From assembly GCA_964511495.1 (NCBI GenBank), contig CAZEFT010000002.1, positions 67,112 to 131,111 of the forward strand: a stretch of 64,000 nucleotides of DNA, read 5' to 3'. Positions 21,934-40,879 of the stretch are shown here, one piece after another. Origin of the DNA: an uncultured Algimonas sp. (lineage in GTDB: Bacteria > Pseudomonadota > Alphaproteobacteria > Caulobacterales > Maricaulaceae). A model generated the notes under the pieces. It saw only the letters and a program-made list of their open reading frames with translations. It searched no databases and had not been told where the DNA came from. The translations under genes were made by a program, and so were the position numbers. The first letter of the stretch is position 1. Each line of letters opens with the position of its first letter.

Positions 21934-26122
<4,189 letters not shown>

Positions 26123-26236
26123 CACTGTTCCGCGTTTCTTAAGCGGTCGCGGTCATTTATATATTGCCTTCGAGAGGCTGGGCGGTGGTAGCCTCTTCAT
26201 CAACGCTTTGCGTTCGGATTATCCCCAAAGCGGTAG

Positions 26237-26788
26237 TTAGTTATTAAAGAAATCTGCTGGAAAAATATGTGCTGGATCAAAAGCTGTAACAATACCAGTT
26301 GCATAGAAAAAATGCGGGCCGCTTATACATTCGCATGTAGCTCCGGGAATTTTGCACGCTGCTGGTATTTTCTTGGTGCTACGTTTATTTTCATTTGTTA
26401 CCAAGCAATAGCCATAATGAGAAGCCACAGCGATGAGCCATGGGTCGGCTGGATCGCTGGTTGTTCCTCCGGTTTGAGGCCATAAATGTGCTGCTTGGTC
26501 ACTTATTAGCGTGATTTTTGCTGCTACCTCTGCGCAATATTGATCTTCTGTTTTAATTTCCAATAGTTTTTTATGGGGCAATATTTCAGTTTTTAAGATG
26601 GGGTCGTGTTTCATTTCTTTGAACACTTGGCGCACGGTCTTTACATAGCCTGCTTTTGCAAGATTCAAAATACCAGCGAATAATATGGGCGCGTCATCGC
26701 GACTTTTGATGCTCATAAAAACATCTGAATCGATTAGGTAGACTTTTTCACTACTAGACAAGCGATAAAGCTTTGTGCTTATCGACAT
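26237..26788 (-). CDS. DUF4411 family PIN-like nuclease (putative effector/toxin)
   Basis: Hallmarks VYLIDSDVF (first acidic residue), VFKEM, ADPWLIAVA, LVTNE, KIPAACK..C. The start is ATG 26788 or TTG 26761; either overlaps the upstream gene's stop at 26754-26756. Low GC: 37 G+C in nt 26241-26340 by hand count. Confidence 0.75.
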   Translation of the reverse strand: MSISTKLYRLSSSEKVYLIDSDVFMSIKSRDDAPILFAGILNLAKAGYVKTVRQVFKEMKHDPILKTEILPHKKLLEIKTEDQYCAEVAAKITLISDQAAHLWPQTGGTTSDPADPWLIAVASHYGYCLVTNENKRSTKKIPAACKIPGATCECISGPHFFYATGIVTAFDPAHIFPADFFNN

Positions 26789-27893
26789 ATTCCGACACCT
26801 TGCCGAAATGTTTGCCATTGATGCTTAGATATTCTTCTGCATTGGATTTTGAAATCGCGCCGCGTTGATAAGCCTCAAAAATAGCGCCCGTGTAAGCATT
26901 GCCAAGTTCAGAAAGTGTATTAGCGATACCGTCGCCTCCCTTACCTTGCTTGCGAGGTGTATATCCAGAATGCCAGCTAAATTTTCTGGAAAAGCCCTTT
27001 GGCGCGAGGCCTAACCCTTCAAGTCTTAGTGCCAAAGCAATTCGACTGACTTTGAGACGTGAGGCCCAATGTTTGATTTGTTTTTCTTCCCAATCAACAG
27101 GAGAATTAGGCCATATTTTGATAAGTAACCGTAGGGTATCACGTGGCATTAAAATGGCGGCAGCAAATTTATTACAATAAGCTTCGACTTTGTTCCGGTT
27201 ATCCAAGTCGGACAGACCGGGTTCTCCTATGAGTAAATGGCAATATTCGTGTAAAAGTGTGAAAGTTCGAGCTACTTTAAACGGTTCTGATTTATTAATA
27301 ACGATTATTGGGTTTGATCCCACATGATTAAGAGTAAATCCGCGGCAATCTGTTAGCGGGAACTTTTTGATAAATACTGGTACACCTTGGCTTTCCAAGA
27401 GTGCCCGCCATCTATTAAAGGCTTCATTGCTTTTCCAAGATATGGGGATGTCAGCAGATAGACCCAAGCGTTCACGTTCTCTTTTAGCAACCGTTTCGGG
27501 GTCTGTATCCATAGAGTAGCGAGGAATATTGACATCGGGATATTCATCATCCTCATTTGAGACGATGTCTAAGACTCTTCGAAAATTGTCAACTGCGCTA
27601 AATGCAACACTAAACTCAAAACTATGTTTTGGTATACCGCCTTCGATAGTCCTAAAATCATTTGGTAGATTAGGAACCTCGGGTGGCTTCTTCATAAACA
27701 GAGTTGCTTGGGGCAATCTATACTTTGTCGCAATCTCTTCAAATAGCGATAAAGATGGCAATTCTTCACCTGTTTCCAAAGCTTCTAATTTTTTAGGATC
27801 AATATTAAGGCGTTCAGCAGCGTCAGCTCGGGATAATGACCGAAACTCTCTGGCCCAAACCAAAACATCTTTTTGGACAGGAATAAGACTCAT
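26754..27893 (-). CDS. XRE-family HTH fused to an ImmA/IrrE (COG2856, M78) zinc metallopeptidase domain
   Basis: N-terminal HTH LSRADAAERLNIDPKKLEALETGEELPSL. Central HExxH zinc motif in TLLHEYCHLLIGE. About 130-aa C-terminal extension. Start taken at ATG 27893 (the ORF-track TTG at 27938 is possible). Confidence 0.85.
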   Translation of the reverse strand: MSLIPVQKDVLVWAREFRSLSRADAAERLNIDPKKLEALETGEELPSLSLFEEIATKYRLPQATLFMKKPPEVPNLPNDFRTIEGGIPKHSFEFSVAFSAVDNFRRVLDIVSNEDDEYPDVNIPRYSMDTDPETVAKRERERLGLSADIPISWKSNEAFNRWRALLESQGVPVFIKKFPLTDCRGFTLNHVGSNPIIVINKSEPFKVARTFTLLHEYCHLLIGEPGLSDLDNRNKVEAYCNKFAAAILMPRDTLRLLIKIWPNSPVDWEEKQIKHWASRLKVSRIALALRLEGLGLAPKGFSRKFSWHSGYTPRKQGKGGDGIANTLSELGNAYTGAIFEAYQRGAISKSNAEEYLSINGKHFGKVSEYVDKHKALSLV

Positions 27894-28452
27894 GCAGTTA
27901 TGCTCATAATTGTAAACACTACGCTTACTATTGGGCAAATATCAACATATATTGAAAATTTCTAACGTCCGCTATGCCCCGAAAGCAGAATGATCCTCAC
28001 TTAGCATTTCAAAACCCTCAATAAATTCAGTCTGTTGTGAGAAAATCGAGAGAATGATCCACGGTCTGTGAAACTGTGTCATATTAGGTTTGTTCTTTTC
28101 ACAGGGCAGATCGAGTGCGCATTGACTTGTTTGGTGGAAAGATAGTGTTTGTCATTGAGGAAGCGTGAGTAATGCCGCGTGAAATCTTTGGCTCAGCGTG
28201 TTGCTGATCAGTCGGATCGCGAGATCCGGTTCGGCCGCTGATGGAAAAAGACACTACTGCGGTGCTTCGCTTTGACCCTCAATCGAGGTGAGGAGTGGGG
28301 TTGTAAAAAATCACACTAGACACATGGTTCCCACCTTCAACTCCACAACACCGCAGACAGCCCATTTTTTCCAAGACTGAACTGAAACGAAACTGAAACG
28401 AACAAGCGAAAGATAAAAAGATAAGAAACGAAGACAGAGAGAAACAAAGACA

Positions 28453-28785
28453 TTGAGCCGAAGACCATCATCAAAAACATACAACGTCAAAAAACGAAGG
28501 CGAAAGTTACGCGCCTTACAAATCGAGGCGAAAATTCACGCTTTGAAATCAGCGCGTAAACCCGCAGTGCCAAAGCCCATATCCGAACGTGAAAAGCATT
28601 TGTTAAAAGCCGTGATGGATGCGCGGCGGGCGGCCTATTTTGAATGTCTCGAACTTGAATTAGTCAATCATCAACGCGCGATGACAGGTTTGCCACCGCT
28701 GAAATCCGTACCCCCCGATACGCCGCAAGCGCGTAAAATCATGCGGATGGAACGAGAGATGATGGGCATATTGGAGCGGCTTTGA
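28453..28785 (+). CDS. Hypothetical basic protein (coding status uncertain)
   Basis: 110-aa ORF whose only upstream start is a TTG; the first ATG is at codon 55. Lys/Arg-rich N-terminus KKRRRKLR. No recognisable domain. Preceded by a purine-rich tract. Confidence 0.3.
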   Translation: MSRRPSSKTYNVKKRRRKLRALQIEAKIHALKSARKPAVPKPISEREKHLLKAVMDARRAAYFECLELELVNHQRAMTGLPPLKSVPPDTPQARKIMRMEREMMGILERL

Positions 28786-28865
28786 AATGAACAAAAGAGT
28801 GTAAAGCTTTCCAGTGACGTGGGAGCCTCCTTACTAACGCGCTTCGCGCGCCGCGTTCGGATGGA

Positions 28866-30692
28866 CTATAACGGCGCGCAAGCTTGTTTTAGCCATTCCA
28901 AGACCTCCCCCTCCAATCGGGGGCCGATGTCTTTGAGAACTTGGGCATGATAGCTATTGACGTAATGTTTTTCAGCGAGGCTCAATAGGTCTAAATCAAT
29001 CAGGTCTCTGTGAATGGGGGCGAAGGTGAGGGTTTCGAAACCCATCATCGGGCGTTCTCCGCCAGAAATGTTTTGCCCTTCCGTCACATATTGCAGATTT
29101 TCAATGCGAATGCCGTATTCCCCGGCTTTGTAATATCCGGGCTCGTTGGAGACAATCATACCGGGGCGCAGAGCGACGGAATTGGCCGCTTTGGAAATGC
29201 GTTGCGGGCCTTCATGGACGCCGAGGAACACGCCAACGCCGTGACCTGTGCCGTGGTCATAATCCAACCCGGCCGCCCAAAGCGGCGCGCGCGCGAAGCT
29301 GTCTAGCGCGGGTCCGGTCGTCCCTTCGGGGAAGCGGATTGTGGCCAAAGCAATATGCCCCTGTAAGACGCGCGTGAAGCGATCGCGCATTTCATCACTG
29401 GGGGTACCGATAGGAACCGTTCGGGTAATATCCGTTGTGCCGTCCTGATATTGGCCGCCACTATCAACCAGATAAAGCGAGTTCTTTTCGAGTTTTAGGC
29501 TCGTCGCGACTGACACGCGATAATGGCACAAAGCCCCGTTGGAGGCTGCCCCTGAAATGGTCTCGAAGCTTAAATCTTTCAGCCCGTCATATTCACGGCG
29601 AAACAGCTCTAATTTTGTGGCCGCTTCAATCTCGTCATACTCGCCGGATTGGGCATCGGTATCAAGCCAATGCAGAAATTTGGTGATCGCGACGGCGTCA
29701 CGTCGATGCGCTTCGGCGGACCCTTCGAGCTCGGCTTTGTTTTTACAGGCTTTAGGAAGAGCGACTGGATCCATGGCTTTTTTGATTTTAGCCCCCGCTG
29801 TTTCCGCCGTTTCGAAATGCCAAGCCGATGTTGTGTTGGGGTCCATCATGACGGTTTTGCCCGAGAGGTTTTTCAGCGCCCCTTCGAGATCTTCTTCTTT
29901 ATGGATAGAGATTTCATTGCCCAAATGTTGACTGACCTCAGAGGAAAGTTTTTGAGCATTGACGAAGAAATCCACATGGCCGGTATTGTGAATAATGGCC
30001 GTCGACAAAGGGAGAGGTGTGCATTGCACATCGCCGCCACGGATGTTGAGCAGCCACGCAATCGAGGCCGGTGCCGTGATCAGAGCCGAGTCTGCGCGTT
30101 TGGCTTTCAGGGCTTCGGCAATCTCCTGCCGTTTTTCATGGTGGCTTTTTCCGGCCAAGGCTTCGGGTTGAATTTGAATGGGTTCGAGCGGAGCTGGTGG
30201 GCGGTCTGTCCACGCAACATCAATCGGATTTGGCGACAGAGCCACGGCTTGCCCGCCTGCGTTTTCAATAGCCTCAATCAATTTGGCGAGGGCGGCAGGG
30301 CTGTGTAATTTCGGGTCAAACCCGATTGTCTGACCGTCTTTGACAGTGTGACGCAACCAGTGTGCAACGCCGGCATTTTCAAGGTCTTCATAGCTGAACA
30401 AGTCACCATCGACCTGTTGGCGGACTTGGATTGTGTATCGCCCATCGGTGAAAATTGCGGCGCTGTCCTGCATCACCACTCCGGCTCCGGCTGACCCGGT
30501 AAAGCCGCTCACCCATTGCAGGCGATCTGTAGATTCGGGTAAATATTCGTTCTGATATTCGTCTTCATGGGGGACGATGAAACCATCCAAGTTCTGCGCT
30601 TTTAATGCGGCCTGTAAGGTCGGGAGGTTTTGACGTCCTAATTCTGGGCCGCCTTTAACATCGAAATTTTGGAAGAGAGTAATATCATTCAT
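28866..30692 (-). CDS. pepP: Xaa-Pro aminopeptidase (aminopeptidase P, M24B)
   Basis: 608 aa with N-terminal creatinase-like domains. Pita-bread metal ligands DSGGQY..DITRT, HGTGHGVG, SNEPGYY, IRIEN. Confidence 0.9.
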   Translation of the reverse strand: MNDITLFQNFDVKGGPELGRQNLPTLQAALKAQNLDGFIVPHEDEYQNEYLPESTDRLQWVSGFTGSAGAGVVMQDSAAIFTDGRYTIQVRQQVDGDLFSYEDLENAGVAHWLRHTVKDGQTIGFDPKLHSPAALAKLIEAIENAGGQAVALSPNPIDVAWTDRPPAPLEPIQIQPEALAGKSHHEKRQEIAEALKAKRADSALITAPASIAWLLNIRGGDVQCTPLPLSTAIIHNTGHVDFFVNAQKLSSEVSQHLGNEISIHKEEDLEGALKNLSGKTVMMDPNTTSAWHFETAETAGAKIKKAMDPVALPKACKNKAELEGSAEAHRRDAVAITKFLHWLDTDAQSGEYDEIEAATKLELFRREYDGLKDLSFETISGAASNGALCHYRVSVATSLKLEKNSLYLVDSGGQYQDGTTDITRTVPIGTPSDEMRDRFTRVLQGHIALATIRFPEGTTGPALDSFARAPLWAAGLDYDHGTGHGVGVFLGVHEGPQRISKAANSVALRPGMIVSNEPGYYKAGEYGIRIENLQYVTEGQNISGGERPMMGFETLTFAPIHRDLIDLDLLSLAEKHYVNSYHAQVLKDIGPRLEGEVLEWLKQACAPL

Positions 30693-40314: not shown

Positions 40315-40321
40315 ATCAAAG

Positions 40322-40645
40322 TGGGAGGTTTCTGTTGCCAGCTACCTCCCGAAGCCCGCCTAGCCGTCTGAAGGGCTAGGAGTTAAAGTCGGAATGTCCG
40401 AACTGCTTACGCAGCTAGGGCAAATTCCTCAGAATAATTGTCATTTGCAATTATAAAAACGGGCATTTAACGGTACCCATACGGAAGAAAGCTAACCCTT
40501 TTGAACGTCTGTCGATCCTATTTCGGCCCCATCAAAAGCTCTCAATGTTTTGAGAGTTTATGGTGGAGCCGCCGGGTACCGCCCCCGGGTCCAGTCCGTC
40601 TATTATGAGCGCGTTTATCCTCATAGTCAGCAAGCTGACGCTTCA
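40322..40645 (-). ncRNA. ssrA: Two-piece (circularly permuted) tmRNA
   Basis: Read on the - strand. The acceptor piece ends ...CCGGGGGCGGTACCCGGCGGCTCCACCA at 40561. A 30-nt spacer follows with hairpin CTCTCAA/TTGAGAG. The coding piece starts GGGGCCG (40530-40524), which pairs with CGGCTCC and gives a G3:U wobble. The tag ORF GCA AAT GAC AAT TAT TCT GAG GAA TTT GCC CTA GCT GCG TAA (40448-40407) encodes ANDNYSEEFALAA. A terminal hairpin GGGAGGT..ACCTCCC is followed by T-rich sequence. The outer ends are approximate. Confidence 0.85.
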
Positions 40646-40879
40646 TATGTAGGAGAAATATCTGAGAATAAAAGCCTGATTCCCGTTTCCATGTGTTGAT
40701 TTTTGCTGAAACTCGACTAAATATCGGCTCAGATAAGTGAAATGCCCCGGTTTTATGAATGTTACATGAATAAAATTTGGAACAATGGGCAGGTTGTGAC
40801 GTTTTTCTTACGAAGTGTTTGAAATTTGATATTTCTATCTGTAAGGGTAGAAAAAATTGGAATCCGTGGGAGGATAATT

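Follow-up and report, generated by a model that had tools for sequence, protein, structure and literature searches.

The stretch of DNA considered here, 64,000 nt from an uncultured Algimonas sp. and hereafter called the window, carries on its minus strand two overlapping genes (26237-27893) that very probably constitute a type II toxin-antitoxin cassette of the VapBC52/RosmerTA-like kind, inserted in the chromosome of an alphaproteobacterium. The upstream gene (gene 1, 26754-27893, minus strand, running from ATG 27893 to the TAG at 26756-26754 in the open reading frame (ORF) list and the minus-strand sequence) encodes the 379-aa antitoxin, and the downstream gene (gene 2, 26237-26788, or from TTG 26761, minus strand) encodes the toxin, a DUF4411 PIN-fold protein homologous to VapC52 (Rv2514c). 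The pair belongs to a known, structurally characterised toxin-antitoxin family and is not an uncharacterised system. An earlier note, made by a model from the sequence of the window, had described two overlapping minus-strand genes organised as an operon, and its coordinates, the overlap and the operon structure were all confirmed by the ORF list and the sequence; the peptide strings it quoted (LSRADAAERLNIDPKKLEALETGEELPSL, TLLHEYCHLLIGE, YLIDSDVF, VFKEM, ADPWLIAVA and LVTNE) are all present. The same note had held that the DUF4411 pairing lacked any experimentally defined function, a claim refuted by the work on Rv2515c/Rv2514c (PMC6504116) and on VapBC52 (PMC13273310).

Fusions of COG2856 and Xre domains, Rv2515c being named among them, were found in 2009 to share operons often with PIN or RelE toxins, and a three-component system was proposed for them (Makarova et al., PMC2701414). 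In 2017, DUF4411.1 proteins were described as potential toxins lying downstream of fused DUF955-HTH genes (HTH, helix-turn-helix; Matelska et al., PMC5499597), and in 2019 Rv2514c was reported to be toxic in M. smegmatis and to be rescued by Rv2515c (TASmania, PMC6504116). The structures of the VapBC52 complex (9vzy) and of VapC52 (9vzz) followed in 2026 (Nucleic Acids Res., June 2026; PMC13273310); for one family member, a crystal structure is available and a mechanism has been proposed. In particular, one antitoxin binds a toxin dimer in a 1:2 complex, in which VapB52 needs its N-terminal domain to bind the toxin and blocks the toxin's active site with its C-terminal domain. The zinc ligands of VapB52 are H216, H220, E245 and C229, the last being a "cysteine switch", that is, a fourth ligand that keeps the protease off. 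Single-stranded DNA (ssDNA) triggers protease-dependent self-cleavage of VapB52 near a conserved FR motif, which frees the N-terminal domain, and VapC52 cleaves host and phage tRNAs (PMC13273310). In 2022-2023, RosmerTA, which combines a Zn-peptidase antitoxin with varied toxins, was shown to defend against phages (Millman et al.; Ernits et al.), and the ImmA/Rosmer antitoxin hub was found to pair with many toxins, PIN-like ones included (Ernits et al. 2023). Annotation pipelines already label the family, as an ImmA/IrrE or XRE protein beside a "DUF4411 family protein".

Antitoxin Homology and Architecture

The fusion of an XRE HTH domain to an ImmA/IrrE domain with an intact zinc site, which had been read from the sequence, was upheld by Pfam, with matches of gene 1 to Peptidase_M78 (PF06114; E=4.8e-13, residues 167-291), to HTH_31 (E=7.2e-7, residues 14-63) and to HTH_25 (E=4.3e-6), the matches to HTH_31, HTH_25 and HTH_19 spanning residues 11-68. 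Against the PDB, gene 1 aligns to chain 9vzy_A with E=1.8e-35, residues 6-369 of the query lying on residues 2-386 of the chain in a full-length, collinear match. This chain is VapB52 (Rv2515c), because the data statement of PMC13273310 assigns 9vzy and 9vzz to the VapBC52 complex and to VapC52, respectively. A direct blastp comparison with VapB52 gives 29.3% identity over 389 columns (E=3.8e-43). As judged from these alignments, gene 1 and VapB52 (Rv2515c) are homologous over their full length. Among the PADLOC models, 16 RmrA models match gene 1, the best with E=1.5e-21 over residues 9-297, and the capP match is weaker (E=8.7e-14). NCBIfam calls agree with the domain assignments as well. Homologues of both proteins are numerous (best E-values, 1e-119 and 4e-233).

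The AlphaFold2 model of gene 1 (predicted local distance difference test, pLDDT, 91.1; predicted template modelling score, pTM, 0.90) comprises three domains joined by two flexible linkers, one at residues 81-90, just past the FR motif, and one at residues 311-320, before the C-terminal domain. When this model was searched with Foldseek, the top matches were CapP (7t5t) and IrrE (3dti), accompanied by small XRE HTH proteins; VapB52 was not recovered from the fold library (to 2026-04-08), which predates 9vzy. The structural relatives named for VapB52 in the VapBC52 paper are CapP and IrrE as well (PMC13273310). The models of the single proteins bear out both assignments, the antitoxin resembling CapP and IrrE and the toxin resembling VapC toxins.

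The N-terminal HTH domain (residues ~1-75; 27669-27893, minus strand), located by Pfam, consists in the model of five helices, from H8-17 to H62-65, and its Foldseek matches are the HTH domains of C.BclI, DdrO and ImmR. By analogy with the equivalent VapB52 domain, whose role is essential (PMC13273310), it may bind the toxin. At the junction between the N-terminal and middle domains lies the FR motif, F80-R81 (27651-27656, minus strand), embedded in NDFRTIEG and aligned to DFRR of 9vzy_A; directly past it, at residues 81-90, pLDDT falls to 67. F80-R81 coincides with the proposed self-cleavage site of VapB52, and cleavage of gene 1 at this point appears plausible on that basis.

The middle domain contains the zinc-binding and catalytic motif HEYCH (H215, E216 and H219; 27237-27251, minus strand), which can be read directly from the sequence. 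In the alignment to 9vzy_A, the third zinc ligand is Glu237 (27183-27185, minus strand), equivalent to E245 of VapB52 and followed by C240-N241, while the position of the cysteine switch C229 is occupied by Ser228 (27210-27212, minus strand), so that GLSD stands here versus GLCD in VapB52. Finally, the C-terminal helical domain (residues ~320-379; 26757-26936, minus strand), into which the alignment to 9vzy_A extends as far as residue 369, is built of helices H322-330, H332-343, H349-356 and H360-376, after the low-confidence, Gly-rich linker 311-320. The earlier description of a C-terminal extension of about 130 aa needs to be divided, as by the VapB52 alignment the segment comprises the helical subdomain of the IrrE-like domain and a C-terminal domain of about 60 aa (~320-379). 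The latter is the counterpart of the VapB52 domain that occludes the toxin (PMC13273310), and it may play the same part here.

Toxin Homology and Active Site

The assignment of gene 2 to DUF4411, with a PIN-like pattern of acidic positions, is borne out by Pfam (DUF4411, E=5.1e-13, residues 17-149), so that the domain calls for both proteins stand, with E-values that chance would not give, and by the conservation of the acidic residues. In an alignment of 35 gene-2 homologues, E58, D115 and E133 are invariant and D20 is conserved in at least 90%; together, D20, E58, D115 and E133 make up the complete PIN acidic catalytic set. A profile made from the same 35 homologues matches the VapC52 chains 9vzy_D and 9vzz_A, both named "DUF4411 family protein", with E=5.7e-9. 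The AlphaFold2 model of the toxin (pLDDT 89.3) has as its top Foldseek matches the VapC PIN toxins 3h87, 5ecw and 3zvk, from M. tuberculosis, Shigella and Rickettsia. A PDB search with the single toxin sequence returned spurious matches to repeat proteins only (designer pentatricopeptide repeat, PPR, proteins), which were rejected, each individual stretch having E>100. A reading of the toxin C-terminus (CxCISGPH) as a zinc knuckle was likewise dropped, the Cys and His positions being kept in most, not all, homologues.

The ORF of gene 2 extends over 26237-26818 and offers three candidate starts, ATG 26818, ATG 26788 and TTG 26761. With ATG 26788 the toxin has 183 aa and overlaps the 3' end of the antitoxin gene by 35 nt (26754-26788, minus strand); with TTG 26761 it has 174 aa and the overlap is 8 nt (TTGTCTAG). 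The TTG start is favoured by the N-termini of homologues and by low model confidence at toxin residues 1-10; it competes with ATG 26788, which is preceded 7 nt upstream by a Shine-Dalgarno-like AAGGTG.

Conservation of the Protease Site and Absence of the Cysteine Switch

The residues on which regulated self-cleavage would depend were surveyed in 153 members of the antitoxin family, among them VapB52 and, for each of the 38 genome loci described below, the upstream ORF. The Arg of the FR motif (R81) is invariant (153/153), the residue before it being F, Y or H, and VapB52 has F75-R76. The HEXXH residues H215, E216 and H219, corresponding to H216, E217 and H220 of VapB52, are each present in 153/153, and E237 (E245 in VapB52) is kept in 152/153, as are C240 and N241, each in 152/153; VapB52 reads EARCN at this point. 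The antitoxin Cys240 (27174-27176, minus strand) thus lies three residues past the zinc-ligand Glu, in an E-x-x-C-N arrangement common to VapB52. IrrE and ImmA usually have Ala at the Cys240 position.

The switch position behaves differently. Ser is found in 115 members, Phe in 18, Tyr in 14 and Cys in five, with one gap, so that Cys is missing in 148 of the 153. At the adjoining position, D229 in gene 1, 107 members have Asp and 44 have Asn; varying in this way, the residue is likewise no obligate ligand of the metal. At the switch position, the M. tuberculosis VapB52 that has been studied is an unusual member of the family, and Ser is the majority state in the sample, one for which the published model does not account. 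The presence of Ser implies that the gating of the protease, and perhaps its trigger, may differ from VapB52. It can tentatively be suggested, as something possible but short of probable, that the published activation model, in which a CapP-like cysteine switch is released by ssDNA, fails for most family members, gene 1 included. In Ser-type antitoxins the protease could be gated in other ways, by toxin binding, by the steric action of a loop, or by the conserved Cys240 beside the zinc-ligand Glu, and a trigger other than ssDNA might be used.

Pairing across Genomes and Plasmids

A scan of one genome per species yielded 38 loci with a gene-2 relative. A gene-1 homologue lies directly upstream in 26/38 by tblastn and in 38/38 by a more sensitive pass with ORFs and phmmer, and in all 38 the antitoxin ORF terminates at or within the start of the toxin gene; conservation of the gene pair, which the earlier note had wished to see surveyed, is accordingly complete in this set. 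The hosts are Alphaproteobacteria, Binataceae, Dehalococcoidia, many Lachnospiraceae, Selenomonadaceae and Bifidobacterium. Plasmids carry the antitoxin as well: 85 plasmid records contain a gene-1 homologue, and 60 of these are conjugative or mobilizable. On Methylorubrum and Bradyrhizobium plasmids the gene next to the gene-1 homologue is annotated as "DUF4411 family protein". Phage records gave no more than five weak matches. When 1.84 billion representative proteins were searched with a profile, 1,434 clusters passed E<=1e-3 and 134 passed E<=1e-10; the family is of moderate size.

Enrichment beside defence genes, another expectation of the earlier note, received a mixed answer. Of the 127 ORFs that neighbour the pair in the 38 loci, a count for which there is no baseline, some match restriction-modification, Dpd, AbiQ, DISARM-like, PbeA or mad2 models, and many are housekeeping genes. 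Two plasmid copies have other conflict-type genes beside them: on Pseudosulfitobacter plasmid P7 (L125, 2489-6113) the antitoxin and PIN genes are followed by a Swt1-type HEPN gene and a dcm methyltransferase gene, and on Bradyrhizobium pBs5S5a (L126, 1-4114) the antitoxin-PIN pair adjoins a gene for a SIR2-family protein.

Mobility and Insertion Site

The pair is carried on a mobile cassette. Locus L043 shares with the window a span of 1702 nt at 80.7% nucleotide identity (26247-27947, minus strand), which consists of the two genes and about 55 nt upstream, and no similarity between L043 and the window was found beyond 26247-27947. The proteins of the L043 copy are 87% (toxin) and 92% (antitoxin) identical to those encoded here, and its genomic context is another one, with neighbours that include a DUF3768 protein. 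The window itself shows the lower guanine-plus-cytosine (GC) content that had been noted before, 0.39-0.44 over about 26200-28200 versus 0.50-0.58 in ligA and pepP.

Comparison with relatives at the insertion site gives a concordant picture. The pair is present in none of the 80 loci kept for pepP relatives. In nine of these (L047, L050, L051, L052, L055, L067, L069, L070 and L076) pepP and ligA converge 12-36 bp apart, and in the closest relative (L044; pepP 78% and ligA 79% identity) a 409-aa transporter-like membrane protein of the major facilitator superfamily (MFS) type fills the gap between them. As the pepP/ligA gap is empty or differently filled in relatives, the pair represents an insertion into a variable spot, and its closeness to recN, ligA and uvrD is incidental. 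The edges of the cassette were set by the comparison with L043 and with the empty sites in relatives; a search of the flanks of the low-GC stretch gave neither convincing repeats, direct or inverted, nor a tRNA gene or integrase. The 1.7-kb cassette is mobile, horizontally inserted and recent-looking.

Upstream Region and Neighbouring Genes

The block conserved upstream of gene 1 (27909-27947, minus strand) contains a predicted promoter, TTGCCC-18 nt-TACAAT, at 27938-27909, and TGTTGATAT at 27939-27947. The promoter-like site comes from a consensus scan and falls within the block conserved with L043, whose homology ends at 27947; in the upstream alignment of these two sequences, TGTTGATAT and TAAGCGTA stand out as conserved blocks. 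From its sequence, the upstream block is a likely promoter and possibly an operator. In the operator search no palindrome was supported by the two upstream sequences, and no operator is definable because there are two such sequences only. A terminator scan gave its sole match inside the toxin gene, and this match was disregarded. A 10-nt sequence, GGATCATTCT, is repeated exactly and in direct orientation just beyond the upstream edge of the cassette, at 27987-27996 and 28051-28060 (minus strand), 64 nt apart; the window has no further copy, the expected count is 0.15, and two of 100 shuffles reach two copies.

The cassette had been described as embedded between ligA and pepP. These genes do flank it (ligA at 23607-25679, plus strand; pepP at 28866-30692, minus strand), but neither is its immediate neighbour, as a membrane-like 154-aa ORF (25658-26122) and a basic 110-aa ORF (28453-28785) intervene. 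The convergent pepP/ligA junction appears as a variable insertion spot, which here measures 3.2 kb (25680-28865) and holds three or four genes. The 154-aa ORF (plus strand) is hydrophobic and has 22 nt in common with the 3' end of ligA; Pfam gives it sub-threshold matches only (Cation_efflux, DUF3995), and no tblastn match at E<=1e-5 was obtained in the 80 pepP-relative loci. The 110-aa ORF (plus strand) is very basic, with a Lys/Arg-rich N-terminus, and the JGI and ENA contigs annotate it as a gene. Its place is the part of the low-GC stretch that separates the cassette from pepP, beyond the 1.7 kb common to L043; it has no Pfam match and is absent from the pepP-relative loci. The search of the 500-nt spacer at 27948-28450 gave no credible further gene.

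The called neighbours (the membrane ORF, the 110-aa ORF, ligA and pepP) include no second XRE gene, integrase or CD-NTase, and neither integrase nor phage genes are called beside the pair in the source contigs. The wider neighbourhood is of the housekeeping kind, with a cell-division cluster, recN, ligA, pepP and uvrD and no defence island. Further away, a tmRNA gene of the alphaproteobacterial two-piece (permuted) type is found at 40320-40677 on the minus strand (Rfam alpha_tmRNA, 257 bits); it marks the host as an alphaproteobacterium, and the contigs identical to the window are metagenomic.

Proposed Mechanism and Alternative Explanations

If gene 1 and gene 2 work as VapBC52 does, the antitoxin would bind a toxin dimer directly, the N-terminal HTH domain holding the toxin and the C-terminal domain covering its active site. 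Upon a signal, the antitoxin would cleave itself after the N-terminal domain; the complex would then break up, and the free PIN nuclease would cut tRNAs at the anticodon or variable loop, leading to a halt of translation and thus to growth arrest or abortive infection. On inference alone, the HTH domain is probably also a repressor of the promoter that drives its own operon. The earlier proposal of a sensor protease coupled to a PIN nuclease is retained in its logic, and one part of it, that the fusion either controls the nuclease or is neutralised together with it, is revised, as in the light of VapBC52 the fusion would be an antitoxin that binds the toxin and cleaves itself, not a separate repressor. 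DNA damage or phage may be the trigger of nuclease release, as that note had suggested.

Several observations weigh against this reading as a toxin-antitoxin cassette that works in the manner of VapBC52. On the side of the toxin, the kinship with VapC52 is distant, being missed by the single-sequence PDB search and detectable by profile only, and the profile alignment spans positions 26-140 of 176; no PADLOC model matches gene 2 at E<=0.1; and the toxin clade carries a C-terminal extension of ~40 aa (residues ~145-183; 26237-26356, minus strand), with the pattern IPAAC...CxCISGPHF...PAHI, which lies beyond the part aligned to VapC52. On the side of the antitoxin, the zinc ligand of the cysteine switch is the sole VapB52-type feature tested that gene 1 fails to show. 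As to function, in M. smegmatis VapC52 alone protects from phage D29 and co-expression of VapB52 and VapC52 does not (PMC13273310), so that a defence role of the intact operon is unproven even in VapBC52. Nor was a demonstration of DNA binding or autoregulation by the HTH domain found in the literature for any member of the family, and phage protection by an intact HTH-M78/DUF4411 operon has not yet been demonstrated there.

The strongest competing explanation, rather unlikely in our estimate, regards the cassette as mainly a selfish addiction or stabilisation module that acts by post-segregational killing and, once horizontally acquired, has become a neutral passenger, with no phage defence and no specific stress trigger. 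The many plasmid copies, most of them on conjugative or mobilizable records, would agree with such a role, as would the minimal and mobile nature of the cassette, its setting among housekeeping genes in place of a defence island, the mixed and often housekeeping neighbours of the 38 loci, and the lack of D29 protection when VapB52 and VapC52 were present together. However, a protease site and FR motif that are invariant in 153 members point to regulated self-cleavage under selection and not to simple instability of the antitoxin; RosmerTA systems, whose antitoxin is of the same type, protect from phages when expressed from their native promoters; and some of the neighbours are of restriction-modification, Dpd, AbiQ or DISARM type, the plasmid copies beside SIR2 or HEPN plus dcm being further instances.

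A second, unlikely alternative concerns the target, and would have the toxin act on DNA or on RNA other than tRNA (e.g., rRNA or mRNA), the architecture of VapBC52 being shared and its target not. The distance from VapC52 and the clade's own C-terminal extension leave room for this, and close relatives among PIN toxins do differ, some cutting tRNA and others rRNA (PMC10440598). Against it, the fold and catalytic residues of the toxin match those of VapC-type RNases, and tRNA is what VapC52 cleaves, no other DUF4411 protein having been found for which both a structure and a biochemical study exist.

It is improbable that gene 1 is primarily a self-cleaving repressor of other genes of the ImmR/ImmA or DdrO/IrrE type, governing, for instance, a DNA-damage regulon or what is left of a mobile element, the PIN protein being an accessory factor and no toxin, since the features that suggest it (DdrO and ImmR among the best structural matches of the XRE HTH, IrrE and CapP as matches of the protease domain, recN, ligA and uvrD nearby, and the possibility raised for COG2856-Xre fusions by Makarova et al., PMC2701414) are countered by a place beside repair genes that is not conserved, relatives lacking the pair there and a near-identical copy lying elsewhere, by the lack of called integrase or phage genes beside the pair, by the 38/38 pairing with an overlapping PIN gene together with the direct VapB52-VapC52 complex, both of which fit a toxin-antitoxin pair, and by the conservation in gene 1 of the C-terminal domain that covers the toxin.

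Relation to Known Systems

As a toxin-antitoxin cassette, the pair resembles VapBC52 most closely in its layout. Both are two-gene operons with the antitoxin first; in both, the antitoxin combines an HTH domain, an IrrE-type M78 domain (HEXXH...E) and a helical C-terminal domain, with an FR motif at the N-terminal/middle junction, and the toxin is a PIN protein of the DUF4411 family whose acidic site is conserved. The differences lie in sequence distance, the antitoxins being 29% identical and the toxins recognisably kin by profile only; in the Ser found here in place of C229 and the toxin extension of ~40 aa; and in the host, here an uncultured alphaproteobacterium in which the cassette looks like a recent insertion. 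With RosmerTA the pair shares an antitoxin made of an HTH domain and an ImmA-type Zn-peptidase, of the RmrA type by PADLOC-DB v2. However, gene 2 matches no RmrT toxin model in that database, the RmrT toxins that have been characterised are of other kinds, such as the membrane-depolarising RmrT of Gordonia phage Kita, and RosmerTA has no fixed gene order (58% toxin first), whereas the antitoxin comes first here.

The M78 protease fold of gene 1 is common to CapP/CapH of the cyclic oligonucleotide-based antiphage signalling system (CBASS), IrrE/DdrO of Deinococcus and ImmA/ImmR of ICEBs1, three systems in which an XRE HTH protein undergoes DNA-damage-linked proteolysis. In those systems, however, protease and HTH substrate are separate and the outcome is transcriptional de-repression, whereas gene 1 unites the two in one polypeptide; by homology its output would be the release of bound toxin, and no CBASS, mobile-element or repair-regulon genes are attached to it. 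Canonical VapBC pairs share the VapC-like PIN fold and an antitoxin gene that lies upstream and overlaps. Their VapB antitoxins are ribbon-helix-helix (RHH), AbrB or Phd proteins of about 70-90 aa, small in comparison with the 379-aa multidomain protease-fusion antitoxin encoded here.

Implications

The 1.7-kb cassette brings a short, likely promoter region of its own, and relatives show the site without it, which makes it a convenient unit for cloning. Two points reach beyond this locus, namely that the residue of the cysteine switch is absent here and in most relatives sampled and that the phage protection reported for VapBC52 was seen with the toxin alone only. On the first count, a Ser-type member such as gene 1 would be a better model than VapB52 for the general mechanism of the family.

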